Source of the DNA: a virus
Taxonomy: Duplodnaviria; Heunggongvirae; Uroviricota; Caudoviricetes
IMG/VR virus record: IMGVR_UViG_3300034105_002625
Coordinates: 25,437 to 89,436 of that record
Reading direction: 5' to 3' (one strand)
DNA: 64,000 bases
Shown: piece by piece, positions 7,191 to 61,809 of the stretch
Layout: each line of letters starts with the position of its first letter
Numbering within the stretch: position 1 is the first letter of the stretch
Notes under the pieces: model-generated
The model's input: the letters and a program-made list of their open reading frames with translations, nothing else
The model's database searches: none
What the model was told of the DNA's origin: nothing
Program-made: the position numbers and the translations under genes

Positions 7191-7227
7191 GTTGCTAGAA
7201 AGAATAAAAGTTCGTATATTTAGGTAT
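7191..7227 (+). promoter_or_regulatory. promoter for the tRNA array (GTTGCTAG -33-like element + TTCGTATATTTAGGTAT box)
   Basis: TTG, then 20 nt, then TATATTTA fits the Bacteroidetes -33 TTTG / -7 TAnnTTTG architecture; 44 nt upstream of first tRNA. Confidence 0.55.
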
Positions 7228-7270
7228 AAGAAATAAGAATAAGAGTTCATTGACATATTGGATAAAATTT

Positions 7271-7354
7271 GGAAGGCGGCCGAATGGACGAGGAGCTTGT
7301 CTTGAAAACAAGTAGCGGGTAACACCGTTGTGGGTTCGATTCCCATGCCTTCCT
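7271..7354 (+). tRNA. tRNA-Ser (anticodon TGA), class II
   Basis: acceptor GGAAGGC/GCCTTCC; anticodon stem CTTGT/ACAAG with loop CTTGAAA; long variable arm; T-arm TGGGTTCGATTCCCA. Confidence 0.6.
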
Positions 7355-7360
7355 CAATAT

Positions 7361-7431
7361 TGCCCGTTCGTATAAAAGTAGTACACATGTCTTTGACACA
7401 TGCGGAGAAGGAGCGTTACCTTCATGGGCAA
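7361..7431 (+). tRNA. tRNA-Gln (anticodon TTG) with non-canonical T-loop AGCGTTA
   Basis: acceptor TGCCCGT/ATGGGCA (7 bp incl. G-U); anticodon stem CATGT/ACATG with loop CTTTGAC; T-arm GAAGG-AGCGTTA-CCTTC. Confidence 0.45.
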
Positions 7432-7443
7432 CAAATTAAATTT

Positions 7444-7514
7444 CTAGTAGCGAAGCTAGGTTACATGCCTCACTTGGACTGAGGAGTACGCAGGTTCGAA
7501 TCCTGCCTATTAGA
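7444..7514 (+). tRNA. tRNA-Pro (anticodon TGG)
   Basis: acceptor CTAGTAG/CTATTAG (one G-U); anticodon stem CCTCA/TGAGG with loop CTTGGAC; T-arm GCAGG-TTCGAAT-CCTGC. Confidence 0.55.
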
Positions 7515-7519
7515 CAATC

Positions 7520-7590
7520 GCCCTCTAGGCTTTAAAGTGAAGCACCTAGCTTTTAACTAGGGTAAGAAGGAGCATTACCTTCAGGGGGTA
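7520..7590 (+). tRNA. tRNA-Lys (anticodon TTT) with non-canonical T-loop AGCATTA
   Basis: acceptor GCCCTCT/AGGGGGT; anticodon stem CCTAG/CTAGG with loop CTTTTAA; T-arm GAAGG-AGCATTA-CCTTC. Confidence 0.45.
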
Positions 7591-7649
7591 CACGGATGAG
7601 ATTGTTACTAATTCATAGAACTGCATGGTGTGAGCGTAGAATTAGATTT

Positions 7650-7720
7650 GCCTCGTTGGCGTAATGGGAGCGTATTTCTTTTACATGGAAATGGCAGTGG
7701 TTCGATTCCACTACGAGGTA
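7650..7720 (+). tRNA. tRNA-Val (anticodon TAC)
   Basis: acceptor GCCTCGT/ACGAGGT; anticodon stem TTTCT/GGAAA with loop TTTACAT; T-arm AGTGG-TTCGATT-CCACT. Confidence 0.55.
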
Positions 7721-7921
7721 CTAAGTAAGTTAATATGCTGTGAAAGCTTCAATGAGCGCAAGTTGAAGTTAGGTGGGTTCGAGCCCCTCTACTGTAGTAA
7801 TAGCCTAAGTCGGAGGCAGCCAAGTAGCAGATAACATATTATAGCCGATTTGGGTTGTGCACCTCGTCCGAGAAGCCCTAATAGTTCCTAATAGTTCGGT
7901 ATGGAACAACTTACTTAAAAT

Positions 7922-7992
7922 GGGGACAACAGGCAAGGTGCCGAGCAGCTCTGTAAAAGCTCACTGGGTAGGTTCGATTCCTACTGGCCCCA
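7922..7992 (+). tRNA. tRNA-like gene, tentative anticodon GTA (Tyr) in a class-I (short variable arm) scaffold
   Basis: acceptor GGGGACA/TGGCCCC (one A:G mismatch); T-arm GTAGG-TTCGATT-CCTAC; 4-bp anticodon stem AGCT/AGCT with loop CTGTAAA. Confidence 0.3.
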
Positions 7993-8098
7993 CAAAGTCA
8001 TGGCATCAAATCCCGGTAGGGGTGCTGACTTAAAATAAACAACGATGGTGAAAATGGAGTCCTGCAGGCTAACCAGAAGTAACAACGAGGGGATAATT

Positions 8099-8171
8099 GG
8101 GGATTAAGCTAATCTAGTGAAAGCGCTAGCCTGAAGAGTTAGAGAGATCGGAGCGTAACCGATAGTCCCCA
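8099..8171 (+). tRNA. tRNA-Phe (anticodon GAA) with non-canonical T-loop AGCGTAA
   Basis: acceptor GGGGATT/AGTCCCC; anticodon stem CTAGC/GTTAG with loop CTGAAGA; T-arm ATCGG-AGCGTAA-CCGAT. Confidence 0.45.
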
Positions 8172-8178
8172 CAATATT

Positions 8179-8251
8179 GGTCTGAAGCTTAAGAGGTATA
8201 CAGCGGAGGTTTGTTAAACCTAGGATAGCAGGTTCGAGTCCTGTCAGACCA
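8179..8251 (+). tRNA. tRNA-like gene, anticodon unresolved
   Basis: perfect acceptor GGTCTGA/TCAGACC; T-arm CAGG-TTCGAGT-CCTG; anticodon arm does not fold canonically by eye. Confidence 0.3.
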
Positions 8252-8478
8252 GCAAAACTACTGAAATTGAATGACACGAGCTTCATACGTTCGAAAGGAG
8301 TCATGCAGTAGTTTAAAATGTTCGTATAGATGTGCTGTGGATACGCAGGGAACACATCGAGTGGGTTAATGATGGTAGTAGGTACACAACACTCCTTAAT
8401 ACTAGGATTGGAGCGAAGGGTTGATGCATACTGCAGGTAATTAACAAGACTGGTTCGATTCCAGTTACGGGCGCAATT

Positions 8479-10113: not shown

Positions 10114-10150
10114 GTTGCTAGAAAGAAATAAAGTTCGTATCTTTAAGTAT
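10114..10150 (+). promoter_or_regulatory. promoter (GTTGCTAG + TTCGTATCTTTAAGTAT box) for the second half of the tRNA array
   Basis: same bipartite motif as 7191-7227, immediately after HNH stop. Confidence 0.5.
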
Positions 10151-11012: not shown

Positions 11013-11086
11013 CGCGAGTTGGTAGAAGATGGTATCTCGCTAGGCTCATAACCTAGAGGTCGGGGGTTCGAATCCCTCACTCGCTA
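11013..11086 (+). tRNA. tRNA-Met (anticodon CAT)
   Basis: anticodon stem CTAGG/CCTAG with loop CTCATAA; T-arm GGGGG-TTCGAAT-CCCTC; acceptor CGCGAGT/ACTCGCT with one terminal mismatch. Confidence 0.5.
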
Positions 11087-11091
11087 CTAAT

Positions 11092-11166
11092 GTCCTTTTA
11101 GCTCAGCCCGGTTAGAGCAGCTCGCTCATAACGAGAAGGTCACAGGTTCGAATCCTGTATAGGACA
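11092..11166 (+). tRNA. second CAT-anticodon tRNA (elongator Met, or Ile2 after lysidine modification)
   Basis: acceptor GTCCTTT/ATAGGAC; D-arm GCTCAGCCCGGTTAGAGC; anticodon loop CTCATAA on CTCG/CGAG stem; T-arm ACAGG-TTCGAAT-CCTGT. Confidence 0.5.
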
Positions 11167-11196
11167 CAAAAATTTTATCCAATAAAAATAAAAGTT

Positions 11197-11637: not shown

Positions 11638-11660
11638 AAGTTTGGATATTAAAAATATTG

Positions 11661-11677
11661 TTCGTATATTAAATAAA
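11661..11677 (+). promoter_or_regulatory. promoter box variant TTCGTATATTAAATAAA
   Basis: conserved TTCGTATATT core 18 nt upstream of ATG 11695. Confidence 0.4.
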
Positions 11678-11694: not shown

Positions 11695-12606
11695 ATGAAA
11701 AATTCATTAGCAGCAAAAGGGTTATCAATGTCACAAGCACAATCAATCTCAAACTTGTGCAATCAACGTTCAAAAGATATTACAGCACAATTGGCTGATA
11801 TCAATAACGTTTCAAAAGAATTAGTAATAGGTTCAGATACCTATACTGAGGTTAAAGGAAATCCAATTCCAGCAAACGTAGTTGAATTATTAACTGCTAA
11901 AGCAAGATTATCTGCCACTCAAGCATTCTTGATGGAGAACATCAAGGCTAAGGACGAATTGATTAACAAAATCAAATACGAAGGATTTCAGTACTCAGTA
12001 GAGGCTCCAGTTCGTCCACAAACAATCTCAGAAAACATTCCAACAGAAGTGGATGAGGATTTTGGTTGGGATACTTTAACAACAGCCGAATACAATGAAT
12101 TTATAGAGGCAGAGGCTTATGCTTCACATATTGGACAATTTATCCACAAAGGAGGTAAATTGGATCGATTGAGAGCAGAACTTCCTACCATTAAAACTTT
12201 AGAGTTTATGGAAATTGAAGTAGGAAAGAAAACTCCACTTAAAATAACTATTCATCATACTGCAGCACAATTGCTTACAATCCATGAGGAGTTAGCAGCA
12301 TTACACAGAGGGTATGAGCAAAAAGTGAATTACTTCAAATCTAAGATTAAAAATGCTACTACTTCTGAGAATGCTAAAATTCAGAAAGAGAGAGGAGAAA
12401 TTCAAGCAAGAGTTAACCAACAAAACTCAGACCTAGCAAATGCTTATAAATTAGCATATGAGCAATGGACTGCAGAGCAACGTAAAGCTCAACACGAGTT
12501 TGAAGAAAAACGTCAAGCAAAAATTCAAGATGCTGTCAATTTAAAAATTGAAGTAGCAGAAAGATTTCAATCTGTAGTAGATGAATTTTTAAATCAATTA
12601 AAATAA
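11695..12606 (+). CDS. hypothetical protein (303 aa)
   Basis: long ORF, K/E-rich C-terminal coiled-coil-like region. Confidence 0.4.
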   Translation: MKNSLAAKGLSMSQAQSISNLCNQRSKDITAQLADINNVSKELVIGSDTYTEVKGNPIPANVVELLTAKARLSATQAFLMENIKAKDELINKIKYEGFQYSVEAPVRPQTISENIPTEVDEDFGWDTLTTAEYNEFIEAEAYASHIGQFIHKGGKLDRLRAELPTIKTLEFMEIEVGKKTPLKITIHHTAAQLLTIHEELAALHRGYEQKVNYFKSKIKNATTSENAKIQKERGEIQARVNQQNSDLANAYKLAYEQWTAEQRKAQHEFEEKRQAKIQDAVNLKIEVAERFQSVVDEFLNQLK

Positions 12607-12945
12607 TTTGGTGCTAAGAAGGTAAGCACAAGCTGATCCTTCAGAGCTTTATGCTGGGATAGTAGGGTTTTAAATATAAACTATATGATATATTCAATAT
12701 TCAACTACAGACATAAACACCTCCGGGTGTTTGTAAACTCGCTTCCCTACAAACTTAAACCAAAACTGAGATAGAACTCAACAGCTAGACAGGTTACATC
12801 CCGTAAAGGGTGATTGGCTAGCGACTCTAGACTTAGTTTTTGTCCTTGCCCTTGTGGTAGTGGAAGGTTTTTGACTTTGATTTTGCATTTGACATCGTCT
12901 ATATGCTTTACATCCCAGCAACATTTTTTAAAAATAATTAACAAA

Positions 12946-12968
12946 AAGCTTGCTTACGCAGGCTTTTA
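12946..12968 (+). terminator. rho-independent terminator hairpin + T-run
   Basis: AGCTTGC-TTAC-GCAGGGCT hairpin followed by TTTT; overlaps the -33 region of the next promoter. Confidence 0.45.
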
Positions 12969-12985
12969 TTCGTATATTTAGGTAT
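12968..12985 (+). promoter_or_regulatory. promoter box ATTCGTATATTTAGGTAT
   Basis: near-identical copy of the conserved box, 14 nt upstream of ATG 12999. Confidence 0.5.
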
Positions 12986-13649: not shown

Positions 13650-13650
13650 T

Positions 13651-15398: not shown

Positions 15399-15410
15399 AA
15401 TAATTGTTAA

Positions 15411-15436
15411 AAGGCTTGTTTATATGAGCCTTTTTT
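15411..15436 (+). terminator. rho-independent terminator
   Basis: GGCTT-GTTTATAT-GAGCC hairpin + TTTTTT right after RNA ligase stop. Confidence 0.5.
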
Positions 15437-15444
15437 CTTATCTT

Positions 15445-15461
15445 TAAGTATTAAAATAAAG
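15445..15461 (+). promoter_or_regulatory. promoter box variant TTCTTATCTTTAAGTAT
   Basis: conserved box variant upstream of a 57-aa ORF (ATG ~15464). Confidence 0.4.
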
Positions 15462-15621: not shown

Positions 15622-15659
15622 AGTTGGAGAATTAGAATAAAGTTCGTATATTTAGGTAT
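15622..15659 (+). promoter_or_regulatory. promoter (AAGTTGGAGAA + TTCGTATATTTAGGTAT)
   Basis: perfect core box at 15643-15659. Confidence 0.5.
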
Positions 15660-25751: not shown

Positions 25752-26045
25752 ATGACGTTACAGGAACTAATTACTTTAGCAGGAGATAGAGATCTATCAA
25801 AATCATATCCAAAAGCAGATGGCCTTTACATCTGGGATTATAAATTACAATTCAATCAGGACTTTGAATTAGACTTAGTACTAATACCAAGCGATTCAGG
25901 AAAGACAGGATTCAAAGACAAAGTGTCAATTCAGGAGTTGGTAACCTATACATTAGGTGAACACAGTCAGGAACTCTCATCAGAACAAATATTATCGGAA
26001 TTACAAATTGTAGGTGTTGAAGGTATAACAGTAGCAAAAGTATAA
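25752..26045 (+). CDS. hypothetical protein
   Basis: 97 aa ORF. Confidence 0.3.
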   Translation: MTLQELITLAGDRDLSKSYPKADGLYIWDYKLQFNQDFELDLVLIPSDSGKTGFKDKVSIQELVTYTLGEHSQELSSEQILSELQIVGVEGITVAKV

Positions 26046-26046
26046 C

Positions 26047-26625
26047 ATGAAAAAGTTTTTATTATTACTTTTACTTCCGCTAATAGGCTTTGGACAACTA
26101 AGAGATAGCATTTACGTAAAGACAGACATCTACGAAGTAATGTACTCTGAAACATTGGAACAACCATTATGGGTAAAGTATACAGTGGCTTGTACCGGAG
26201 CAGGAGCATCTAGAAAAGGAATGGACTTTTATACAGATAAAACAATCCATACCTCAGATGCAAAAGATTATGCATTCAATGTTTACGATAAAGGACATTG
26301 TGCACCTGCAGCAGATTTTAATTGTACTAGAGAGATGTTATTTAAAACATTCTCATATTTGAACTGCACCCTTCAGAACGAAAGATTAAACAGAGTGCAT
26401 TGGAGATTGTTGGAAGATTATGAAAGATTACTAGCATATACCGAAGGACCAGTCAATGTTGAAATAAAAATAGTATTTGACAAAAGTCCCAAGAGAGTAC
26501 CTGCAGGTGCAGCTATCCCTACCGCTTTCTATAAAATTATTAAAACAAAGAATAAGTCACTTAAGTTTTTCTTTAAGAATGAACAACCAACCAAGCCGAC
26601 GTTTGTCGACTATCAAATCAAATAG
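26047..26625 (+). CDS. secreted DNA/RNA non-specific endonuclease (Serratia NUC / EndoG family)
   Basis: 192 aa; signal peptide MKKFLLLLLLPLIGFG; active-site-like YDKGHCAPAADF (cf. DRGH motif). Confidence 0.55.
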   Translation: MKKFLLLLLLPLIGFGQLRDSIYVKTDIYEVMYSETLEQPLWVKYTVACTGAGASRKGMDFYTDKTIHTSDAKDYAFNVYDKGHCAPAADFNCTREMLFKTFSYLNCTLQNERLNRVHWRLLEDYERLLAYTEGPVNVEIKIVFDKSPKRVPAGAAIPTAFYKIIKTKNKSLKFFFKNEQPTKPTFVDYQIK

Positions 26626-26627
26626 TT

Positions 26628-27023
26628 ATGGCATTAAAAATAGGAAATAAGATATTCATAAGCTGGGATGATATGAACATCCTAGTTGATGAACTCTGCA
26701 GTACGATTTCAAAATCAGGAGCAGAAATTAAATCAATTACAGGAATTGAAAGAGGAGGATTAATACCAGCGGTAATGATCTCACATAAGCTAAACATTCC
26801 TTATGTAACGAAAATCAATAAGTATACTCTTGTTGTAGATGATATTTGTGATACCGGAGAGACGTTAAAAAAGACTGTAGCAGGTTTTACAGCAACACTT
26901 CATTATAAGAAGACAGCAATCTTTACACCGGACTTCTATTCAAAAGAAGTAGGAACAGAGTGGATTGTTTACCCTTGGGAAAGAAATGACTCAGAAACTA
27001 TTCAAGATTATTTGAAAAAATAG
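26628..27023 (+). CDS. small type-I phosphoribosyltransferase (xanthine-guanine PRT / Gpt-like)
   Basis: 131 aa; PRPP-binding motif LVVDDICDTGETL; IERGGLIPA region resembles Gpt. Confidence 0.6.
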   Translation: MALKIGNKIFISWDDMNILVDELCSTISKSGAEIKSITGIERGGLIPAVMISHKLNIPYVTKINKYTLVVDDICDTGETLKKTVAGFTATLHYKKTAIFTPDFYSKEVGTEWIVYPWERNDSETIQDYLKK

Positions 27024-27094
27024 TTGTAGGATAGAATAAAAAATGTTATATTAAATAAAACGGAGTCGTAGAACCTCCATAAAAACAATCTTAT

Positions 27095-27805
27095 ATGTCA
27101 AATAAAAAATTTATCGACGGTACAGAATTAGTACAAGCCGGATTCGCTAATGGTATTTCATCTCAATTAGCTAAAAAACAATTAACAGATGGTCCAGAGG
27201 CAAGACTAACTGAAGTAGAAAAGCAACACATAATCGAAGATGCAGCAGAAGCATTTGGTAACTTCTTAACAGCTTTAGGTACTGATTGGAAGAATGATCC
27301 AAATTCATCTGATACTCCAAAGAGAGTTGCAAAGGCTTATGTAAATGATCTATGGGCAGGAAGGTATGCACCACTTACTCAAATCACAGCATTTCCTTCA
27401 GATGGATATGATGGAATAGTTCAAGAGAGTAACATACCAGTTACTTCAATGTGTTCACATCACCACCAAACAATCTCCGGAGAGGTAAGCATAGCTTATA
27501 TTCCCTCTAAAGATGGAAAGGTAGTTGGGCTTTCAAAACTAAATAGAATTGTAGAGCAGTTTGCTAGACGTGGAGCAATCCAAGAACAGTTAACAGTTGC
27601 AATTCATAATGCAGTAGATAAAATCTGTGAAGGGAATCTAGGAGTAGCAGTAGCAATCTCAGCAACACATAACTGCGTATCATGTAGAGGAATTAAACAT
27701 CAAGGAGCTTCAATGCAAACAGCAAAGCTAACAGGATGTTTCTTAGAAGAAGATTCAGCAAGAGCAGAATTCTATTCAAATATTAAACTCGGAAAAAATA
27801 ACTAA
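27095..27805 (+). CDS. folE: GTP cyclohydrolase I
   Basis: 236 aa; MCSHHHQ (cf. CEHH) and HNCVSCRGIKHQG (cf. HxCMxxRGV) signature motifs. Confidence 0.85.
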   Translation: MSNKKFIDGTELVQAGFANGISSQLAKKQLTDGPEARLTEVEKQHIIEDAAEAFGNFLTALGTDWKNDPNSSDTPKRVAKAYVNDLWAGRYAPLTQITAFPSDGYDGIVQESNIPVTSMCSHHHQTISGEVSIAYIPSKDGKVVGLSKLNRIVEQFARRGAIQEQLTVAIHNAVDKICEGNLGVAVAISATHNCVSCRGIKHQGASMQTAKLTGCFLEEDSARAEFYSNIKLGKNN

Positions 27806-27816
27806 AATCAAACAAA

Positions 27817-28014
27817 ATGGATTATTGGCAAGTAACAGTGCAATTGGAGCACGAAAACGACAGAGGTCGTATTCAGAAAGTAAGAGAACTTTATTTAGTA
27901 GATGCAATTTCAGCAACAGAAGCTGAAGCTAAAATCTATGTAGAGTTCGAAGGAGAGTCTAACTTCACAGTAGTAGGAGTTAATCAATCTAAAATATTAA
28001 AAGTATTGGAATAA
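27817..28014 (+). CDS. hypothetical protein
   Basis: 65 aa ORF. Confidence 0.25.
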   Translation: MDYWQVTVQLEHENDRGRIQKVRELYLVDAISATEAEAKIYVEFEGESNFTVVGVNQSKILKVLE

Positions 28015-28018
28015 AAAG

Positions 28019-28040
28019 TTGGACCTTCGGGTCCAATTTC
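28019..28040 (+). terminator. rho-independent terminator
   Basis: TTGGACC-TTCG-GGTCCAA perfect hairpin + TTT. Confidence 0.5.
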
Positions 28041-28053
28041 TTATATTAATAAA
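28037..28053 (+). promoter_or_regulatory. promoter box variant TTTCTTATATTAATAAA
   Basis: box 14 nt upstream of ATG 28067. Confidence 0.35.
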
Positions 28054-28066
28054 AAAGTAAAAAGTT

Positions 28067-28591
28067 ATGATAACAGATCCAAAAGTACCTTTTATTGATG
28101 AGGTAGAAGAGTTTAATGCCGTAATGGGCAAACCTAACAACTATGAACCAACTATCCCCGAAAGAAAAGAATGGGAGTTTGTATACAATTTCATCCTTGA
28201 GGAATTGGAAGAATATAGAGAAGCTTGCGAAAGAGGAGACATCGTTGAGGTTTTGGATGCTTTGTGCGATATTGCTTATGTTTCCCTTGGGAACGGTACT
28301 ATGTTACATGGCCTTAAGGATAAGATATGGCCAGCATATCAAGAAGTACAGGCATCAAATATGTCTAAAGCTTGCAAAACAGAAGACGAAGCTTTACAGA
28401 CTGTCATTAAGAGAGCGCTCGAACAGAATGAAGCATGTCATCATGAAAAAGTTGGAGACTATTATATCGTCTATAGAACAAGAGATAGAAAAGTAATGAA
28501 GAACGTTAACTATTTCCGTCCGGACTTAAAACAATTCTTTACAGATAAAGAACTTCAGAAGTCATATTTAAAACAACTAACAGGAGAGTAG
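28067..28591 (+). CDS. MazG-like all-alpha nucleoside triphosphate pyrophosphohydrolase
   Basis: 174 aa; acidic helix pattern E-x2-EE-x2-EA…D-x2-E…D typical of phage MazG-like NTP-PPases. Confidence 0.45.
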   Translation: MITDPKVPFIDEVEEFNAVMGKPNNYEPTIPERKEWEFVYNFILEELEEYREACERGDIVEVLDALCDIAYVSLGNGTMLHGLKDKIWPAYQEVQASNMSKACKTEDEALQTVIKRALEQNEACHHEKVGDYYIVYRTRDRKVMKNVNYFRPDLKQFFTDKELQKSYLKQLTGE

Positions 28592-28592
28592 T

Positions 28593-28790
28593 ATGCAAAA
28601 AGCATTAGACCATTTAGAGAAGCATAAAGTCTTTATTGAGACTTTAGGAACAGATATGATACCTTTATCGGAAGCTTACAAGGCAGTGGAGTTATCAATC
28701 GATGAACAATTACAGGACACTTTATCTTTACTACAGGAACAACTCGGAGGATTGACAGAAGAACTAGAAATACCAGAAGAAAATGATTAA
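28593..28790 (+). CDS. hypothetical acidic protein
   Basis: 65 aa ORF. Confidence 0.25.
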   Translation: MQKALDHLEKHKVFIETLGTDMIPLSEAYKAVELSIDEQLQDTLSLLQEQLGGLTEELEIPEEND

Positions 28791-29577
28791 GATAGCTCAC
28801 GAATCACCAAAAAGCATATTCAAACAGGTACAGAGTGTAACTGACTATGACTATGCACTTGTACATTTATTTGAAGAAGATCCTGAATACCTACAGCAAT
28901 TTCAAGAGGCAAAGGAAAAAGGAAGAGAGATTATTCTAGATAATTCTATCTTTGAATTAGAAGAAGCTTTTGATGCAGAGAAGTTTGCAGGATGGGTATT
29001 AGAGTTACAACCAGATTGGTATATAGTTCCTGATGCTTTAGAGGATGCAAAGAAGACTTGCTCACAAATGGCAAATTGGATAAACAAATATAAAAATCTT
29101 CCAGGAAAGAAGATAGGAGTTGTTCAAGGAACAACCTATCAGCAGATTAAATCTTGTTACGAATACATGGATAAGATTGCTGAAGTTGATATGATTGCAA
29201 TTTCATTTGACTATTCTTACTATGTTAAATCAGTTCCGCATCCAAACAAATATGTTTCCTGGATGATGGGTAGAGTAAAACTATTAGGAGATTTATTAAA
29301 GGATGGAATAATAAATGAGAATAAGAAGCATCACTTATTAGGATGCGGATTACCTCAAGAGTTTGCTTTCTATTCAGATTATAAATGGATATACTCTTTA
29401 GATACTTCCAATCCAGTTGTTCACGGAATAAAAGGAATTGAATACAGAGAAGACGGACTATGGTCAAAAGAATCTCAGAAGTTATTTGAATTAATAAATC
29501 ATCAGGTAGAAGATATTAATCCAATACTATATAATATCAATAAGTTCAAATGGTTTACAAATGGAAGCAAAGTATAA
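28783..29577 (+). CDS. dpdA: DpdA-like 7-deazaguanine DNA transglycosylase (tRNA-guanine transglycosylase superfamily, no zinc site)
   Basis: 264 aa; TGT-like blocks GVVQGTTYQQ (cf. GIVQGG), MIAISFD (cf. GYAIGGL), HLLGCGLP (cf. LMGVGTP), YSLDTSNPV (cf. FDCVLP catalytic Asp); no CxCxxC…H zinc motif. Confidence 0.55.
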   Translation: MIKIAHESPKSIFKQVQSVTDYDYALVHLFEEDPEYLQQFQEAKEKGREIILDNSIFELEEAFDAEKFAGWVLELQPDWYIVPDALEDAKKTCSQMANWINKYKNLPGKKIGVVQGTTYQQIKSCYEYMDKIAEVDMIAISFDYSYYVKSVPHPNKYVSWMMGRVKLLGDLLKDGIINENKKHHLLGCGLPQEFAFYSDYKWIYSLDTSNPVVHGIKGIEYREDGLWSKESQKLFELINHQVEDINPILYNINKFKWFTNGSKV

Positions 29578-29729
29578 AGTAGGACAAAAAGTTGATATTA
29601 ATCGTGATAATGAAATACTAGAAGTACAGATATTCGGACATTTTAAAATGAGAGAAAGAGTACTTTACAGTGTTAGATCAGAAGGAAAGTTTCACGTAAT
29701 AGAAGAATCAGAAATATTAGAAAGAGTAA

Positions 29730-30257
29730 ATGATTAGACCTTGGATAGCATTTTTTAGTCAAACAGGATCAGAGATCGTAGAAGTATCAAAGCTTCTAGG
29801 AAGATGGCCTGATATGATAGTAACAAACGAAAGACCAGAACATCTTAGAAAGATTCATCCGGCTTTAGAGAACAAGCATTTAATCTTCGTAGATAATAAA
29901 CCTTCAGAAGAAGAATTAGGACTAATATTAGGTCACTATAAAGAACCTTTAGTAACTCTTCATGGATGGTTAAGAGTTATGCCTCCGGATATCTGTAATA
30001 GGTTTGAAATCTATAATGGACATCCAGGACTTATAACTGAACATCCAGAACTAAAAGGAAAAGATCCACAACAAAAAGCTTTTGACTTAGGATTAGAATC
30101 TTCCGGATGTGTTATTCATAGAGTAACAGAAGGAGTTGATGAAGGAGAGATACTTCGAAGTAGAAAAGTTTCTATAAAAGGGTTGGAAATAGGAGAATTA
30201 TTTCATATCTTACATAGTATATCAGTAAGTCTTTGGGTAGACTTCTTAAAAAATTAG
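29730..30257 (+). CDS. formyltransferase (PurN / Fmt catalytic-domain family)
   Basis: 175 aa; N-x-HPGL (YNGHPGLITEHPELKGKD) and downstream catalytic Asp (EGVDEGEIL) match the formyl_trans_N fold. Confidence 0.6.
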   Translation: MIRPWIAFFSQTGSEIVEVSKLLGRWPDMIVTNERPEHLRKIHPALENKHLIFVDNKPSEEELGLILGHYKEPLVTLHGWLRVMPPDICNRFEIYNGHPGLITEHPELKGKDPQQKAFDLGLESSGCVIHRVTEGVDEGEILRSRKVSIKGLEIGELFHILHSISVSLWVDFLKN

Positions 30258-30259
30258 TT

Positions 30260-30784
30260 ATGAAAAGAATAGCATTAGTAGGAGCATCATCAGTAGGTAA
30301 GACTACGGTATATGAATTACTTAAAAGTAAATTACCTGAGTATGATTTCATAAATGAATCAACAAGAACGGTTGGTAAATTTGGATTTCCTATTAATGAA
30401 GCAGGAACTTCTGAAACACAGCTTGCTATTTCTTCTTTCCATTTAGAAGCTCTATTAGCTCCTAAGGATGTAATCTTAGATAGATGTTATTTGGATTTGG
30501 TAGTATACTCTACTTATATGGATAAGTTATCTACTAGCGCATATGATTACATATTAGATACTTGGGTAAGAGTTAGGCATCAGTATACACATTTTATTTA
30601 CTTCCCTATCGAATTTGCATCAGTAGACGATGGAGTAAGAAGTGTAAACGAAGAATGGAGAGAGGCAATTGATAAGCAGTTTGAAATTAACTTAAAAGCA
30701 ATTAAATTTGCTGGAGGAGATTATTTAACAGTAACAGGAAGTCCTAATCAAAGAGTTGAACAAATATTAAACTACATAAAATAA
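30260..30784 (+). CDS. P-loop NTPase / small-molecule kinase-like protein
   Basis: Walker A ALVGASSVGKTT; start adjusted to Met 30260 (MKRIALVG). Confidence 0.5.
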   Translation: MKRIALVGASSVGKTTVYELLKSKLPEYDFINESTRTVGKFGFPINEAGTSETQLAISSFHLEALLAPKDVILDRCYLDLVVYSTYMDKLSTSAYDYILDTWVRVRHQYTHFIYFPIEFASVDDGVRSVNEEWREAIDKQFEINLKAIKFAGGDYLTVTGSPNQRVEQILNYIK

Positions 30785-30785
30785 T

Positions 30786-32000: not shown

Positions 32001-32024
32001 GAGTTGTTTAATCGCAACTCTTTT
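32001..32024 (+). terminator. rho-independent terminator
   Basis: GAGTTG-TTTAATCG-CAACTC hairpin + TTTT. Confidence 0.45.
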
Positions 32025-32040
32025 CTTATCTTTATAGTAT
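32023..32040 (+). promoter_or_regulatory. promoter box variant TTCTTATCTTTATAGTAT
   Basis: box 13 nt upstream of DNA polymerase ATG 32053. Confidence 0.4.
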
Positions 32041-34386: not shown

Positions 34387-34408
34387 AAGTTGTTTCCTTA
34401 GATATTTA

Positions 34409-36589: not shown

Positions 36590-36602
36590 GAAGGGACCGA
36601 GA

Positions 36603-36647: not shown

Positions 36648-36668
36648 AATTAACCAATTAACAAACAT

Positions 36669-37553: not shown

Positions 37554-37581
37554 AAAGAGGCCTCGTGCCTCTTTTTTTTGT
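37554..37581 (+). terminator. rho-independent terminator
   Basis: AAAGAGGC-CTCGT-GCCTCTTT hairpin + TTTTTTTT. Confidence 0.55.
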
Positions 37582-37604
37582 GCTATTTATATCAAAGAGT
37601 TACT

Positions 37605-39616: not shown

Positions 39617-39629
39617 AATAATTAAATTA

Positions 39630-39656
39630 AGGCTTGCTTTTGCAGGCCTTTTTTCT
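39630..39656 (+). terminator. rho-independent terminator
   Basis: AGGCTTGC-TTTT-GCAGGCCT hairpin + TTTTTT. Confidence 0.55.
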
Positions 39657-39671
39657 TATATTATAGTTATA
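39654..39671 (+). promoter_or_regulatory. promoter box variant TTCTTATATTATAGTTAT
   Basis: 12 nt upstream of ATG 39683. Confidence 0.35.
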
Positions 39672-40877: not shown

Positions 40878-40912
40878 GGGTATATTTATATATACATATA
40901 ATTATATAAACA

Positions 40913-42544: not shown

Positions 42545-43831
42545 ATGAGTAAACCTACATTAGTAGTAAGCTGTCCAGTAGACACTTACTCAGGATATGG
42601 AGCAAGAGCAAGAGACTTTGTACAATCAATTATCGATACAGATAAGTACGAAGTAAAGATCCTATCACAAAGATGGGGAGGTACTAGATTTGGATATCTT
42701 AAAGATCATAAGAATGAATCTTTAGCCTCTAGAATTATACCACAACTAACACAACAGCCAGACATCTGGATTCAAATTACAGTACCGAATGAATTTCAAA
42801 AGGTTGGTAAATACAATATTGGACTAACAGCAGGAATTGAAACTACAATCTGTGATCCTTCCTGGATTGAAGGATGTAACAGAATGGACTTAGTATTAGT
42901 ATCAGCACAACATGCTAAGAAAGTATTTGAAGATAGTAAATTCAATATGCAAGATTCAAATACAGGACAAGTAACAGGACAGTTAGCACTTAGTACAAAG
43001 GTAGAAGTTCTATTTGAAGGAGCTGATATAGAGAAGTATGCACCATTGTCATGGCCAGTCACATTAGATCTTTCAACTATACCGGAAATGTTCTGCTTCC
43101 TAACAGTAGGTCACTGGCTTCAGGGGTCTCTTGGAGAGGATAGAAAGAATATTGGATACACTATTAAAGCATTCTTAGAAACATTTAAGAATAAAAAAGA
43201 TCAACCGGCACTTATTTTAAAAGTACAAGCAGGAGCAGGAACCTCTATCATGGATAGGGAAGCAGTGTTGGATAAAATTGATGCAATCAGAAAGACAGTA
43301 AAGGGAAAGTTACCAAACATTTACGTACTACATGGAGAAATGTCTGATGCTGAAGTAAATGAACTATACAACCACGGTAAGGTAAAGGCGATGATCTCTT
43401 TAACAAAAGGAGAAGGATTTGGAAGACCTCTACTAGAATTTAGTTTAATAAACAAACCAATCATAGCTTCAGGATGGTCAGGGCATATTGACTTCCTTGA
43501 TAATCGATATACAAAACAAATAGGAGGAACTCTTACAAACGTACATCCATCAGCAGCTGTAGACAAAATGATCTTACAAGAAAGCCAGTGGTTTACACCA
43601 GACGATGCTCTTGTAGGAAAAGCTCTTAAGGATGTATTTGAGGATTATAAACCATATAAGGAATTAGCCAAAAGACAGGGGTATAAGAGTAGAACTGAGT
43701 TCTCGTATGATAAGATGAGAGAGACGCTAGATACTCTTCTAACACAGTACATTCCTGAATTCCCTAAGCAAGTACAGTTAAAGTTACCTCAACTTAAGAA
43801 AATAGAACTACCAAAATTAACTAAAATATAA
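42545..43831 (+). CDS. glycosyltransferase, GT4-like (GT-B fold)
   Basis: 428 aa; GEGFGRPLLEFSLINKPIIASGW matches GT4 motif. Confidence 0.6.
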   Translation: MSKPTLVVSCPVDTYSGYGARARDFVQSIIDTDKYEVKILSQRWGGTRFGYLKDHKNESLASRIIPQLTQQPDIWIQITVPNEFQKVGKYNIGLTAGIETTICDPSWIEGCNRMDLVLVSAQHAKKVFEDSKFNMQDSNTGQVTGQLALSTKVEVLFEGADIEKYAPLSWPVTLDLSTIPEMFCFLTVGHWLQGSLGEDRKNIGYTIKAFLETFKNKKDQPALILKVQAGAGTSIMDREAVLDKIDAIRKTVKGKLPNIYVLHGEMSDAEVNELYNHGKVKAMISLTKGEGFGRPLLEFSLINKPIIASGWSGHIDFLDNRYTKQIGGTLTNVHPSAAVDKMILQESQWFTPDDALVGKALKDVFEDYKPYKELAKRQGYKSRTEFSYDKMRETLDTLLTQYIPEFPKQVQLKLPQLKKIELPKLTKI

Positions 43832-44289
43832 TGGAAGAAAAAATGTCAATCTGTCCACATTGTGGAGGAAATGCTTGCTATGAACAAGCAGTAACAGAAG
43901 AAGTAACAACAAGCTTTTGCTTTGGATGCGGGTATTCAACTTCAACTCTAATGGTTGAAGGAGGAGATTTAGTAAACAAAACACTAGAAGCATCACCAGA
44001 ACTTTATAAAGATCTTATGTTTGTAAGTGAAGATAAGAAAGTATGGTTCCCTTCTACAGTTACTCTTCCAAATAAAGGAATGGTATTCTTAGACGGAACA
44101 GCAAAAGAGAATTGGAGATGGGCAGCAGTAACCTCAGTAGAGATTCTAGAAGAAGAGAAAGCTAAATTTCCAAAAGGTCAGACAACTAAAATGGATATGA
44201 AAAATATCAAACATTTTGAGAAAGAAGATTTTATGGAAGCATTAGATGCTATCAAATTCTTTGATGTAGAAGTTGCTGAATCAGAATAA
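43831..44289 (+). CDS. zinc-ribbon protein
   Basis: 152 aa; CPHCGG…CFGCGYS. Confidence 0.3.
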   Translation: MEEKMSICPHCGGNACYEQAVTEEVTTSFCFGCGYSTSTLMVEGGDLVNKTLEASPELYKDLMFVSEDKKVWFPSTVTLPNKGMVFLDGTAKENWRWAAVTSVEILEEEKAKFPKGQTTKMDMKNIKHFEKEDFMEALDAIKFFDVEVAESE

Positions 44290-44291
44290 AT

Positions 44292-44308
44292 TTCTTATCT
44301 TAATAGGA
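44292..44308 (+). promoter_or_regulatory. promoter box TTTCTTATCTTAATAGG abutting ATG (leaderless candidate)
   Basis: box ends at ATG 44308. Confidence 0.35.
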
Positions 44309-56467: not shown

Positions 56468-56504
56468 GTTGCTAGATAAGACTATTGTTCGTATATTTAG
56501 GTAT
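56468..56504 (+). promoter_or_regulatory. promoter (GTTGCTAG + TTCGTATATTTAGGTAT)
   Basis: bipartite motif with 20-nt spacing; 22 nt upstream of ATG 56526. Confidence 0.55.
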
Positions 56505-56525: not shown

Positions 56526-56933
56526 ATGAGCTTAGAACAAATTAAATGTACAAGGTGTAGGAATGATATGCCTAAACTTAGATTGGACAATTACGGATAC
56601 GATTTCTGTATAGAATGTTCAGATGTAAAGCCTAAGGTAGGACGTATTAGAGTAGTTGGGGAAGGAGACTATACAGTCACTGAACTTGATATCTTAGACC
56701 AGGATACAGCTAGAAGACTTCAAGAGCTGGAGAATACCTCTAGAGGAGTTAGAAATGTTCCATTAGAGATCTTAAACTTTGATGAGGATGAAATGTCTGA
56801 CGACAGTAGAGCAATCTCAGAAGCTACAGACAAAGCATTAGAAGGTGAATTAGAAGTCTTAGATGATGAAGAAGACTTAGAAGACCTAGAAGATGTTGAA
56901 GATGTAGAGCTTGAAGACGAAGACGACGAATAG
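56526..56933 (+). CDS. zinc-finger protein with acidic C-terminal tail
   Basis: 135 aa; CTRC…CIEC; D/E-rich tail. Confidence 0.3.
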   Translation: MSLEQIKCTRCRNDMPKLRLDNYGYDFCIECSDVKPKVGRIRVVGEGDYTVTELDILDQDTARRLQELENTSRGVRNVPLEILNFDEDEMSDDSRAISEATDKALEGELEVLDDEEDLEDLEDVEDVELEDEDDE

Positions 56934-57698: not shown

Positions 57699-57735
57699 GT
57701 TGCTAGAACAAACCTTTGTTCGTATATTTAGGTAT
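57699..57735 (+). promoter_or_regulatory. promoter (GTTGCTAG + TTCGTATATTTAGGTAT) fused to start codon (leaderless candidate)
   Basis: box ends 57735; ATG at 57734 lies inside GGTATGG. Confidence 0.5.
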
Positions 57736-58060
57736 GGAAAAAACAGGTGCAACAGTAAAGAAGCTTCATGACTTTAATACCTCAGGAGTATTAGAAGTAT
57801 GTATAAAAGGTAACTGGTATAGGACTACTTGTAATGATTTTAGATCATTCGATGGTAAGAGAAGAATAACTGAGCCAATCAAACAGCCAGGTATAGGGGA
57901 TAGTTTTAATGATATAGAATTTAAGACCTATGACTATAACGGTCCAGTATATGTTCTTCAAACAAACTTAGAAGTAATCAGAATGGATACAGAGACAATT
58001 GTAACTAATCCATATATTGAATCAACACAAAAATCTTTACCTAACAGCAATCGTATATGA
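57734..58060 (+). CDS. hypothetical protein (start adjusted from TTG 57716 to ATG 57734)
   Basis: MEKTGATVKKLHDF…; ORF-track start lies inside the promoter box. Confidence 0.35.
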   Translation: MEKTGATVKKLHDFNTSGVLEVCIKGNWYRTTCNDFRSFDGKRRITEPIKQPGIGDSFNDIEFKTYDYNGPVYVLQTNLEVIRMDTETIVTNPYIESTQKSLPNSNRI

Positions 58061-58623: not shown

Positions 58624-58660
58624 GTTGCTAGAACGAATCTTTGTTCGTATATTTAGGTAT
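58624..58660 (+). promoter_or_regulatory. promoter (GTTGCTAG + TTCGTATATTTAGGTAT)
   Basis: identical box and downstream AGAAATCAATTAAAAA leader as at 61793. Confidence 0.55.
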
Positions 58661-59510: not shown

Positions 59511-59749
59511 TGGATAGAGAGAAATATCTACAGATGAGAAGAACTGGCCAATATGACCTTGGCTGGTTCTATCAATACTACCTAGAGCATAAGGATAAGG
59601 ATAGAATGACTCCTCCCTTTGAAGCTTTTCATCAGGCCTTTAATATGTACTTCCAAATGCATGGAGGTTTTATTCTAGACTATATGGATAAGAAAATGGA
59701 AGTAACTAAAATAGAAAACGAACAAGGAAATTTAATTTATATAAACTAA
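59510..59749 (+). CDS. hypothetical protein
   Basis: 79 aa ORF. Confidence 0.3.
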   Translation: MDREKYLQMRRTGQYDLGWFYQYYLEHKDKDRMTPPFEAFHQAFNMYFQMHGGFILDYMDKKMEVTKIENEQGNLIYIN

Positions 59750-59750
59750 A

Positions 59751-59993
59751 ATGGCAGAAGGCAAAGTAAAAACACCAAAGGAATTGATGGCAGACTTAAA
59801 AGGAAATTACATTCAAGTAATTAAAAAGAACGGAAAGACTCATGATAAGCTCTATAAAGATCCTCAGAGAGCGATTAGAGGAGTAGGAGGAGTTGATAAT
59901 GTAAAATACCTTAGAGAGGTTCTTAAAGAGCAAGTCAATTCAAGATACGTAGAAGTAGATTCATTAACCGGAACACCAGAAAACGAATTATAG
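59751..59993 (+). CDS. hypothetical protein
   Basis: 80 aa ORF. Confidence 0.3.
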   Translation: MAEGKVKTPKELMADLKGNYIQVIKKNGKTHDKLYKDPQRAIRGVGGVDNVKYLREVLKEQVNSRYVEVDSLTGTPENEL

Positions 59994-59995
59994 TT

Positions 59996-60199
59996 ATGGA
60001 AAAATTAGGAATAGTATTAGCAGCATTTGGAATGCTAGTTGTAGTAGCGATTTTATTAGCATGGCCAACACAATGGCTTTGGAATAACGCTTTAGTAGGA
60101 GCAGCAGATGGATTTAATCCAATTGGCTTTTGGCAAGCATTAGGAATTAATATCCTATGTGGAATTTTATTTAGAAATAATAACTCAAGTTCAAAGTAA
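59996..60199 (+). CDS. small membrane protein
   Basis: 67 aa, TM helix. Confidence 0.3.
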   Translation: MEKLGIVLAAFGMLVVVAILLAWPTQWLWNNALVGAADGFNPIGFWQALGINILCGILFRNNNSSSK

Positions 60200-60432
60200 T
60201 GAAGACAGTTATTAAAGTTTTAGTAGGATTTTTCCTAGGATTAGGATTAGTTCAGTTAGTAGATCTAGGAATGTATCTGCTGAATAGGCCAGATAGTTAT
60301 CTATTCAACTTAGGAGTATTGATACTTGGAATAGTATTTGTAGCATTTGGATTCTTAGGATTGTATATAATGAAAATAATCAAGCCTGAGGAAGAAGTAA
60401 AAGAAGAGGTTAAACAGGAAAAAGAAGAATAG
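60199..60432 (+). CDS. small membrane protein
   Basis: 77 aa, two TM helices. Confidence 0.3.
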   Translation: MKTVIKVLVGFFLGLGLVQLVDLGMYLLNRPDSYLFNLGVLILGIVFVAFGFLGLYIMKIIKPEEEVKEEVKQEKEE

Positions 60433-60434
60433 TT

Positions 60435-60824
60435 ATGGTAGTATTATTAGTAATATTAATTGTAGGCTTATTAGTTTTAGGAATTATAGAAACTGTTACA
60501 GCATTTGATTTAGGATCTCCAATCTCAGACAAAGACATCTCAGATTATTTAGATAGAATTGAAAATGAAAATCTTATAAATGGAATAACTTTAAGATGGA
60601 ATGACAAATATGTTCTTAATGTAAAAGGGTATACAATTAGACATCATAGTAATCCTTCCATTTATCAAACACAGTACTCTATTATATTTCCATATTATAT
60701 CACTGATGTAGGAGTAATTCCAATATGGAGTAAATCTTATAGTAGAGTTAAGAAGTTATTTAAAGATAACATTGAAAATTCTAGTTATAGAACAGATAAA
60801 AGAAAAAAATTAGGGCTAGAATAG
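60435..60824 (+). CDS. membrane-anchored protein
   Basis: 129 aa; N-terminal TM. Confidence 0.3.
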   Translation: MVVLLVILIVGLLVLGIIETVTAFDLGSPISDKDISDYLDRIENENLINGITLRWNDKYVLNVKGYTIRHHSNPSIYQTQYSIIFPYYITDVGVIPIWSKSYSRVKKLFKDNIENSSYRTDKRKKLGLE

Positions 60825-60860
60825 TTGCCTCCTAAGAATATATTTCATATATTTAGGTAT
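60824..60860 (+). promoter_or_regulatory. promoter (GTTGCCTC + TTCATATATTTAGGTAT)
   Basis: bipartite motif variant upstream of SPFH gene. Confidence 0.45.
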
Positions 60861-60904
60861 AATAATAAACAATTAATTATAAATCAAATTTAAACAAAGA
60901 AGTT

Positions 60905-61741
60905 ATGAACAGAATTTTAGTAGCAGTAGGATTAATCCTAGTAGTTTTTGCAGTAACCATGTCATGTGAGAACATTGACTCAGGTAACATTGGTATCAAA
61001 GTAAACAAGTTTGGTACAGGAAGAGGGGTAAGTGGAGTAACAGAGTGTACAGGTACAGTCTTTTATAATCCAATCACAACAAACATCTTTGAATTTCCAA
61101 TCAATATTCGTCATAAAGAGTATACTGACGAAGGATCATTTGTAGTGAATAGTAAAGATGGATCAGAGTTTCATGTTAGTCCAATTGTCAACTATAGAAT
61201 TAATCCAGATAAAGCCACACAGATCTTTGCAAAATATAGAAAAGACTTAGATGGTATTGAGAATGGATTCCTTAAGACAGCAGTAACAGAAGCATTTAGA
61301 ATCGTTACCAATGGCTATACAGCTGATCAATTAATCTCAAGTAGAGAAGCATTTGATAATAAAGTAAAAGCTACATTAAGAAAACAATTAGAGCCAGAAG
61401 GATTTGTATTGGATCAATTTACAACTAATCTAGAATATCCTACATCATTCAAGAATGCTATTAATGCTAAGAATAATGCAGTACAGAAGGCTTTAATGGC
61501 TGAGAATAGAGTTAAACAAGCAGAGGCTGAAGCAAAGATTAAAGTAGCAGAAGCAGAAGGAGATGCTCAATCAACACTTACAAGAGCAAGAGCTGAATCA
61601 GAAGCAAATACTTTAAAGCAGAGAACATTAACTCCAATGCTATTGCAACAACAATGGATTGAAGCATGGAGAAAAGGTGGATCTAAAGTACCTCAGTATA
61701 TTACAAGCGGTGGAGGAAACTTCATGATGACTATAAAATAG
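60905..61741 (+). CDS. SPFH / band-7 (prohibitin/stomatin-like) membrane protein
   Basis: 278 aa; N-terminal TM; SPFH-domain-like core then Ala/Glu-rich coiled coil. Confidence 0.65.
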   Translation: MNRILVAVGLILVVFAVTMSCENIDSGNIGIKVNKFGTGRGVSGVTECTGTVFYNPITTNIFEFPINIRHKEYTDEGSFVVNSKDGSEFHVSPIVNYRINPDKATQIFAKYRKDLDGIENGFLKTAVTEAFRIVTNGYTADQLISSREAFDNKVKATLRKQLEPEGFVLDQFTTNLEYPTSFKNAINAKNNAVQKALMAENRVKQAEAEAKIKVAEAEGDAQSTLTRARAESEANTLKQRTLTPMLLQQQWIEAWRKGGSKVPQYITSGGGNFMMTIK

Positions 61742-61768
61742 TAAAATATATTAAAAATAATTGATAAA

Positions 61769-61793
61769 AGAGTTGCTAGCGCAGCTCTTTTTT
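61769..61793 (+). terminator. rho-independent terminator overlapping the next promoter's -33 element
   Basis: AGAGTTGC-TAGC-GCAGCTCT hairpin + TTTTTT. Confidence 0.55.
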
Positions 61794-61809
61794 CGTATAT
61801 TTAGGTATA
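61793..61809 (+). promoter_or_regulatory. promoter box TTCGTATATTTAGGTAT
   Basis: perfect box; ATG at 61833. Confidence 0.5.

Follow-up and report, generated by a model that had tools for sequence, protein, structure and literature searches.

The repeated box and its surroundings

We analysed a 64,000-nt stretch of the viral record IMGVR_UViG_3300034105_002625 (positions 25,437 to 89,436; hereafter the window), in which a 17-nt box recurs upstream of genes and transfer RNA (tRNA) arrays and, together with a TTG upstream of it, probably forms a family of phage promoters. Credible genes all lie on the + strand, and the G+C content is about 34%. The cultured relative vB_FspM_immuto (hereafter immuto), a phage of Flavobacterium sp. 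LMO8 with a 160-kb genome and T4-like portal and capsid genes, shares 70-87% DNA identity with the window across about 57% of its length, and the window phage appears to be a Flavobacterium-type myovirus. ARAGORN and Rfam together gave 20 tRNA genes in the window, two of which (8099-8171 and 8178-8252) were missed by ARAGORN and added by Rfam; the Rfam scan of the window and of immuto 50-100 kb returned tRNAs only. A complete 7-deazaguanine DNA-modification cluster lies at 24322-31712 (QueD, QueE, FolE, DpdA, DpdN formyltransferase and QueF), and QueC is encoded at 4133-4996. Immuto has a syntenic cluster, to whose DpdA the window protein is 87% identical. Since each G of immuto virion DNA is replaced by 7-(formylamino)methyl-7-deazaguanine (PMC10516641), the window promoters are probably read on fully modified DNA.

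Allowing up to three mismatches, TTCGTATATTTAGGTAT matched 14 times in the window (13 times on the + strand), where shuffles predict 0.37 matches. Exact copies number seven (7211, 12969, 15643, 56488, 57719, 58644 and 61792), and GTTGCTAG is found at 7211, 10134, 56488, 57719, 58644 and 61792. We built a 41-nt profile from -24 to +17 around the box and applied it with a cut-off of 15 bits and Markov shuffles as the null. This revealed 27 sites on the + strand and none on the - strand, where 0.03 sites were expected, which confirms that the repeated box is real, and 26 of them were retained as promoters. The site at 53312 was dropped because it is weak, lacks the TTG and falls within an open reading frame (ORF), and the lone - strand match near 39626 was discarded as the reverse of a terminator hairpin. 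The seed alignment consists of an A-tract, (G/C)TTG, 16 variable bases and TTC-k-TAT-m-TT-(T/A)-A, with TTG, TTC, TAT and TT identically spaced in all 24 seed sites. In each of these the TTG lies exactly 16 nt 5' of the box and hence 20 nt 5' of TAT, the distance given in a preliminary description of this DNA.

That description listed 22 box positions, all of which were recovered, with corrections at six of them (12968 to 12969, 23145 to 23146, 28037 to 28038, 39654 to 39653, 61793 to 61792 and 15445 to 15435); the sites at 2847, 3707, 27043 and 30202 are additional. Placement of the sites is strongly skewed: 20 start in intergenic gaps of at least 25 nt, although such gaps total only 5.6 kb of the 64-kb window, and most intergenic gaps of at least 45 nt preceding a gene or tRNA array contain a site. 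Behind the boxes at 7211 and 10134 lie tRNA arrays, not protein genes, and a signal of translation alone is thus ruled out. Matches of the sigma-70 type were not enriched in the window (58 versus 73.5 expected).

The same arrangement extends to related phages. Across 17 site pairs orthologous between the window and immuto, the TTG is 100% identical and box positions 1-10 are 94% identical, compared with 75% for the spacer and 68% for the leader. The exact 17-mer is present in more than 100 IMG/VR contigs, most of which have proteins in common with the window or immuto, while several IMG/VR phages with very few window proteins still have the module in full, down to the A-rich leader and GGTTATG. 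A BLAST search of the 58-nt module against GenBank phages matched only four immuto records, and the module is unannotated in the immuto GenBank record and in the literature searched.

Predicted starts, leaders and nested hairpins

The Flavobacterium -7 element TAnnTTTG occupies -12 to -5, with transcripts beginning 4-5 nt past it (PMC6847099; PMC9723704), which places the predicted start of the phage transcripts at box position 16-18. Counted from box position 17, leaders in the window are 13-26 nt long for most genes. Among 411 distinct sites from the window, immuto and IMG/VR, an ORF ATG stands at box position 16-18 in 25 (about 6%) and only six leaders measure 2-11 nt, while the rest cluster at 12-28 nt, with some distances beyond 28. 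A start at box position 16-17, combined with an inability to translate very short leaders, would account for the near-absence of leaders of 2-11 nt. The bimodal leader lengths thus support a start at box position 16-17 and the existence of true leaderless messenger RNAs (mRNAs), as had been predicted, although indirectly. Such mRNAs would resemble those of Bacteroidota in having AUG at the predicted start, in a host phylum that does without Shine-Dalgarno sequences, and 5.5% of the mapped F. psychrophilum mRNAs are leaderless; they differ in that the leaderless state of the phage mRNAs is deduced from geometry alone.

In the window, an ATG stands at box position 17 at 2659, 24147 and 44308 and at position 16 at 57734. 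At least four boxes had been described as ending at an ATG; of the four named, three hold at the positions given (2659, 44308 and 57734), while the fourth, placed at 24145, should be 24147. At 57734 the immuto ortholog has the same N-terminus despite a 22-nt leader with GGTTATG, and this points to the fused ATG as the real start. For 44308, the ATG that follows is not in frame. A leaderless reading is doubtful at 24147 because an in-frame GTTATG follows 33 nt downstream.

The hexamer GTTATG is common at promoter-proximal starts (13/24 versus 8/92 other starts; Fisher P = 4e-6), with examples at 11695, 15465, 19273, 23175, 28067, 32053, 39683, 56526, 58686, 60905 and 61833. Clade-wide it occurs at 219 of 386 starts, and the context is also present in Flavobacterium phage 11b. 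GUUAUG is the exact complement of tRNA-Met anticodon-loop nucleotides 34-39 (CAUAAC), and differs from the host start context, which prefers A at -3 (PMC6847099). The window carries two phage tRNA-Met(CAT) genes (11013-11087 and 11092-11167), both with the anticodon loop CUCAUAA followed by C; in the first, positions 1:72 are unpaired, as in bacterial initiator tRNAs. Extended pairing between codon and anticodon may stand in for Shine-Dalgarno pairing on the short leaders.

We next turn to the spacer between TTG and box. When hairpins were sought in the 31 nt ending at TTC, 8 of the 26 window promoters (12969, 15435, 19243, 23146, 28038, 32023, 39653 and 61792) had one in the spacer, with energies of -10 to -14 kcal/mol. 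Its 5' arm contains the TTG and is followed directly by the loop, and the 3' arm and a T-tract fill the rest of the 16-nt spacer into TTC. A separate terminator scan had 39629-39650 and 32001-32020 among its top matches. Comparison with immuto revealed compensatory changes that keep three of the stems: a double change at 28038 (GGACC/GGTCC versus GGCTC/GAGCC at immuto 33341), a T-A to C-G change at 32023 (immuto 37314) and stem changes at 39653 (immuto 46520). Clade-wide, 71 of 357 distinct IMG/VR sites have a spacer hairpin, compared with 1.1% in shuffles; these 71 sites represent 54 different stems, and 59 of the 71 have the TTG base-paired within the 5' arm. The compensatory changes, the excess over shuffles and the variety of stems together argue that the nesting is selected rather than accidental. 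Compact terminator-promoter units had been proposed with the -33 region in the descending arm of the hairpin. The units are borne out at the eight sites, but the TTG is in the ascending (5') arm and the whole hairpin sits between -33 and -7. RNA polymerase is able to stay on DNA after intrinsic termination and to re-initiate nearby (PMC6978380), and by analogy such retention may offer a rationale for the nesting.

Candidate promoters along the window and their probable timing classes

The box splits into two classes, TTT (TATATTTAGGTAT) and TTA (TATATTAA...). The TTT class predominates in the early array, the TTA class precedes nucleotide-metabolism, DNA-modification, chaperonin and glycosyltransferase genes, and it is probable that TATATTTAGGTAT and TATATTAAnnnn sites are distinguished by strength or timing. 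Of about 50 box sites in immuto, roughly 30 lie in a small-ORF array at 60.9-76.2 kb and a handful in the 84-kb structural module, where a single element, (C/A)TATTTATAA, is found 15-25 nt before the ATG of most genes. The suggestion that the box marks a timing class is supported by this distribution, the box being dense in early and middle regions and structural genes mostly having TATTTATAA instead. TATTTATA, the motif found before structural genes in immuto, has copies in the window at about 6334-6350, 37570-37585 and 40880-40895, and a further one inside the box at 6928. The copy near 37575 lies 3' of a terminator and 5' of the endolysin and holin region. These copies are likely late promoters of a separate class.

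The 26 candidate promoters are given below from TTG to box end, all on the + strand, with their scores on the 41-nt profile. At 2624-2659 (TTT class, 24.9 bits) the ATG of a gene of 67 amino acids coincides with box position 17 (2659), making it a leaderless candidate, and immuto 16415 has the same ATG fusion. Two TTA-class sites follow, 2828-2863 (32.0 bits), which overlaps the end of gene 2659-2862 and leaves a leader of 18 nt, and 3688-3723 (23.6 bits), which precedes gene 3737-4078 with a leader of 14 nt; they are kept at immuto 16619 and 17482. The TTT-class site 5459-5494 (41.9 bits; gene 5516-5677) is kept at immuto 19848. Beyond this gene lies a non-coding, G+C-richer stretch of 268 nt between genes (5678-5945), which has neither a box nor an Rfam match; the counterpart area in immuto has a tRNA-Cys. 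The site TTCATATATTTATATAT at 6909-6944 (31.4 bits; gene 6959-7114) is the one that also holds the late-type TATTTATA. The first tRNA array (tRNA-Ser from 7271) is preceded by GTTGCTAG and an exact box at 7192-7227 (41.2 bits), the second (tRNA-Cys from 10228) by GTTGCTAG at 10115-10150 (41.7 bits).

Further along, the TTA-class site 11642-11677 (32.1 bits) precedes gene 11695-12606, which has a GTTATG start. An exact box at 12950-12985 (42.8 bits), with a nested predicted terminator hairpin at 12944-12967 (-12.7 kcal/mol), stands before a phosphoesterase gene (12999), and a synteny breakpoint with immuto falls at 12979. The site 15416-15451 (34.5 bits), with a predicted hairpin at 15409-15434 (-11.3 kcal/mol), and the exact box at 15624-15659 (44.3 bits) precede genes with GTTATG starts at 15465 (leader 14 nt) and 15684 (a small gene; leader 25 nt). 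At 19224-19259 (38.2 bits; gene 19273) the predicted hairpin has its core at 19226-19239 (-10.1 kcal/mol), and the ortholog at immuto 25508 has a different hairpin, with the TTG also inside. The TTA-class site 23127-23162 (34.2 bits; gene 23175) holds a predicted hairpin at 23118-23147 (-13.4 kcal/mol). The TTA-class site 24112-24147 (30.1 bits) is the one with the uncertain leaderless reading, its ATG (24147) being at box position 17; immuto 29839 has the same fusion, and there it is the annotated start.

In the modification and replication region, a weaker site, ATGTTATATTAAATAAA, at 27024-27059 (15.5 bits) precedes the FolE gene (27095) and is identical at immuto 32346. A TTA-class site at 28019-28054 (31.7 bits), with a predicted hairpin at 28016-28039 (-13.6 kcal/mol), precedes an NTP pyrophosphohydrolase gene (28067). 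An internal site at 30183-30218 (19.3 bits), near the 3' end of the formyltransferase gene and followed by a thymidylate kinase gene, is kept at immuto 35511. The DNA polymerase A gene (32053) is preceded by 32004-32039 (28.7 bits; predicted hairpin 32001-32020; immuto 37314), GroES/GroEL (34450) by the TTA-class site 34390-34425 (28.5 bits), nearly identical at immuto 40254, and gene 39683 by the TTA-class site 39634-39669 (32.8 bits; predicted hairpin 39629-39650; immuto 46520). A further TTA-class site, 44273-44308 (32.1 bits), overlaps the end of gene 43831-44289 and places the ATG of a family-2 glycosyltransferase at box position 17 (44308), a leaderless candidate; in the ortholog at immuto 52391 the annotated start is inside the box.

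Towards the right end, GTTGCTAG with an exact box occurs at 56469-56504 (45.3 bits), before gene 56526-56933, whose immuto ortholog is labelled DnaK suppressor protein and whose own product has no Pfam match; at 57700-57735 (45.0 bits), before gene 57734-58060, with the ATG at box position 16 as a leaderless candidate; and at 58625-58660 (41.7 bits), before a DUF932 gene (58686). The site 60825-60860 (40.1 bits) precedes an SPFH/Band-7 gene (60905; Band_7 match). The last, GTTGCTAG with an exact box at 61773-61808 (43.3 bits), has a predicted hairpin at 61766-61791 (-13.7 kcal/mol) and precedes gene 61833; its module is identical at immuto 64518.

Three other features were noticed alongside. 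A GC-rich element of about 50 nt (GGGGAGGGGGCG...CACCGAAGGTGTCACGCGCAA) occurs at 36595-36650 and 62125-62185, both intergenic; its core is also found in four related IMG/VR loci, and its predicted folds are no better than those of shuffles. At 63650-64000, iteron-like ACCCGTT repeats (63657, 63669, 63680, 63962 and 63975) surround a purine-rich stretch of about 270 nt that is cut by the window end. The homologous immuto region (L002:16300-16940) has many more ACGGGT repeats at a spacing of roughly 10-11 bp, and the repeats may mark an origin of replication or bind protein as an array. Finally, just past the point that corresponds to the window end, immuto has a full box on the opposite strand (L002:17330-17536, - strand; 67.3-67.5 kb) before a predicted non-coding transcript of about 190 nt ending in a terminator. 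Similar sequences occur in L165 and L049 and the 5' part is kept in distant relatives, with no convincing Rfam match.

Probable host-type recognition and competing explanations

The preliminary description matched the box to the -33 TTTG/-7 TAnnTTTG promoters of the primary Bacteroidota sigma factor (sigma-ABfr type). The likeness holds for the bipartite plan, with TTG near -33, TA at -12/-11, TT at -8/-7, an inferred start 4-5 nt past the element and an AT-rich upstream region. TA and TT occupy these positions in 73/73 window and immuto sites and 357/357 IMG/VR sites, although the profile used for collecting favours those bases. The phage spacing is fixed at 20 nt, and GGTAT after the element is conserved in one phage class, both of which set the phage sites apart from host promoters, as does the TTG: the -33 box is weak or dispensable in hosts (PMC6847099) and invariant in the phage sites. 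The part of the match that failed is the consensus G at -5, which is absent from all 73 window and immuto sites, 65 of which have A. The pattern TTG-N18-21-TAhhTTTG occurs twice in the window, both times within genes, which is chance level.

For comparison with hosts we used the published F. psychrophilum transcription-start table. At -5, mapped promoters have G in 103 and A in 22 cases with the core TATATTT, 44 and 27 with TATCTTT, and 43 and 33 with TAAATTT. Together this gives A 82 versus G 190, so that A is a minority host variant. A host consensus from 41 Bacteroidota loci of the genome scan was dropped, as neither its sample size nor its crude ORF calls sufficed to separate G from A at -5. 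TTC at -16 to -14 is present in 69/73 window and immuto sites and in 347/357 IMG/VR sites, while mapped host TATATTT promoter windows have C at -14 in 23 of 156 cases, which is no enrichment. Since C at -14 is found in about 95% of phage sites and is unenriched in hosts, TTC is a real additional element for which the phages are selected. We also considered A at -5 as avoidance of modified G. This idea was weakened by two observations: seven promoter candidates of the form TTG-N20-TATCTTTA stand at gene starts of Cellulophaga phage phiST, in which G replacement is complete, along with three TATCTTTG-type matches in its left-end region, and Flavobacterium phage 11b, which we take to be unmodified, has both the TATCTTTA and the TATCTTTG types.

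Taken together, we put a probability of roughly 0.78 on the boxes being the -7 parts of about 26 promoters for early and middle genes and tRNA arrays, built on the host -33/-7 plan. Several points weigh against this. Promoter activity, the identity of the holoenzyme, the start position, termination and leaderless translation are all deduced from sequence. The phage spacer of 20 nt departs from the optimum of 19 nt (range 17-23) reportedly described by Chen et al. in 2007. The G at -5 that never occurs in the 73 phage sites is nearly invariant in F. johnsoniae (PMC6847099), and the complete replacement of G in immuto by a 7-deazaguanine derivative (PMC10516641) bears on how sigma would recognize TTG. 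The invariant TTC is not a host feature, so that something beyond the known sigma-A code has been selected. On the supporting side, a scan for TTG-N16-TTCKTATMTTTARGTAT in one genome per bacterial species gave 64 matches, about 47 of them in Bacteroidota of several classes, but these were picked by the phage pattern and many are copies of a few insertion sequences, so they show that the box is possible, not that it is common, in hosts. On Bacteroidota chromosomes the matches precede insertion-sequence transposase, TnpB and other genes, several with an ATG at box position 16-20. Instances of the latter before TnpB, transposase or lipoprotein genes come from Bacteroidales (L132, L145, L147, L148 and L160), Saprospiraceae (L139) and Flavobacterium (L181). 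They hint that leaderless expression from such promoters also occurs in hosts and insertion sequences.

The extra conserved positions had been taken to suggest a phage-specific recognition factor. Host RNA polymerase might read the box only after modification or re-targeting by a phage protein (a sigma, a sigma appropriator or a virion-delivered factor) whose code is TTC, A at -5 and the fixed 20-nt spacing. The near-constant TTC, the avoidance of a G that dominates in hosts and a conservation far above that of host promoters would fit such a protein, and most early proteins have no detectable family and could conceal one. We nevertheless consider it unlikely. The search for a phage sigma or anti-sigma factor that had been proposed as a check covered 40 window and 20 immuto proteins (Pfam for 20 window proteins, PHROGs for 20 window and 20 immuto proteins) and gave no sigma, anti-sigma or RNA polymerase domain; no sigma or polymerase gene is annotated in immuto, and the immuto labels 'DnaK suppressor' and 'RpoN/RPB10' are not backed by Pfam matches in the window orthologues. 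Small early ORFs are most closely packed behind the strongest boxes, and they would have to be transcribed before any phage product was made unless the factor were injected; the same box and TTG spacing also stand before chromosomal and insertion-sequence genes in several Bacteroidota classes. The evidence thus does not call for a phage factor, although the extra conserved TTC may point to an added specificity determinant. Early promoters of phage T4 depend on host sigma-70, are more extended and conserved than the E. coli consensus and reach this without a phage sigma. They resemble the boxes in being many near-identical strong promoters before small early genes, with extra conserved positions and A-rich upstream sequence, and differ in host phylum and recognition code, and in that the promoters described here are known from sequence alone. 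Promoters read by a phage polymerase or phage sigma (T7-like, N4-like or T4 late type) are single elements without a -35/-33 box and come with a polymerase or sigma gene, whereas the box is bipartite and no such gene is annotated in immuto or was detected among the 60 proteins tested. As no sigma or polymerase domain was detected in these proteins and the best and densest boxes precede the apparently earliest genes, we favour the unaided host holoenzyme. A variant that we regard as similarly improbable is that TTC, A at -5 and the 20-nt spacing form a separate code capturing host RNA polymerase, through an injected or very early phage factor or an undescribed 'extended -7' sigma contact, perhaps evolved for bulky 7-deazaguanine DNA; the nested terminator would then pass released polymerase to the next unit.

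The closest known analogue of the modules is the promoter-early stem-loop (PeSL; Arbiol 2010; Comeau 2014) of T4-like phages, of which they may be the Bacteroidota counterpart. A PeSL comprises an AT-rich region, a stem-loop terminator just upstream of -35, a strong sigma-70 promoter, a Shine-Dalgarno sequence and a start codon, and PeSLs cluster in variable regions and mediate modular shuffling (PMC4122927). Both kinds of unit join a short conserved terminator, an early promoter, a short leader and a start codon (with activities that are predicted here) and crowd into variable regions of small ORFs in a large myovirus carrying T4-like head genes; like PeSLs, the phage modules may be tied to indels between close relatives. 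The stem-loop, however, lies upstream of -35 in PeSLs and between -33 and -7 in the phage modules, with the TTG in the stem; sigma-70 grammar and Shine-Dalgarno sequences contrast with Bacteroidota-type promoters and GUUAUG or a leaderless AUG; and only about 20-30% of the phage modules have a hairpin. Alternatively, the modules could persist mainly as such recombination cassettes, with the extra conserved positions reflecting homogenization instead of polymerase contacts. We hold this to be possible but doubtful. Besides the role of PeSLs in T4-like phages (PMC4122927), it draws on synteny: 7 of 44 break ends with respect to immuto fall inside 65-nt modules (1.2 expected, P about 0.0002), an enrichment that is overstated because the null also spans non-intergenic DNA and paired ends are not independent. 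Immuto insertions lie directly after boxes (548 bp at 32023 and 1.2 kb at the 39653 module), homology restarts at 12979, modules are densest in the variable small-ORF region of immuto, and the same module occurs in phages with few proteins in common. Yet spacers and leaders vary widely among copies while TTG, TTC, TA and TT stay fixed, which indicates position-specific selection rather than copying of whole cassettes, and a cassette role would come on top of promoter function, not instead of it. We think it very unlikely that the box serves as an operator bound by a regulatory protein or as a signal for translation initiation. The stereotyped short distance to start codons would suit either, but the box precedes tRNA arrays, has a host-like -33 TTG at fixed spacing, lies 0 to 28 nt and more from the ATG and is not palindromic.

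If the boxes are host-type promoters, host RNA polymerase with the primary Bacteroidota-type sigma would bind TTG at about -33 and TAnnTT(T/A)A at -12 to -5, assisted by the upstream A-tract and by TTC at -16 to -14. Transcription would begin at box position 16-17, giving mRNAs that start directly with AUG or with an A-rich leader of 12-28 nt usually ending in GUUAUG. In about one-third of the window promoters the spacer itself would be an intrinsic terminator, running from the A-tract through the TTG stem, loop and return stem to a T-tract that leads into TTC. The upstream transcript would therefore end about 15-20 nt before the next start, leaving the units insulated and compact. True late genes would use the separate TATTTATAA motif. 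Overall, the predicted promoter family is strongly supported, unusually compact in architecture and akin to two known kinds, host-type phage early promoters and PeSL-like cassettes; the hairpin inside the spacer and the lack of a Shine-Dalgarno sequence set it apart from the latter.

What emerges is a usable set of rules for annotating promoters, terminators and start sites in a large clade of Flavobacteriia phages, most of them uncultivated. For Bacteroidota, where standard E. coli parts fail, the modules are candidate expression parts that would be strong, compact and insulated. They also bear on a possible extended -7 contact of the Bacteroidota sigma and on how host polymerase reads fully 7-deazaguanine-substituted promoters, as well as on polymerase recycling by promoter-internal terminators and on short-leader and leaderless translation without Shine-Dalgarno pairing.

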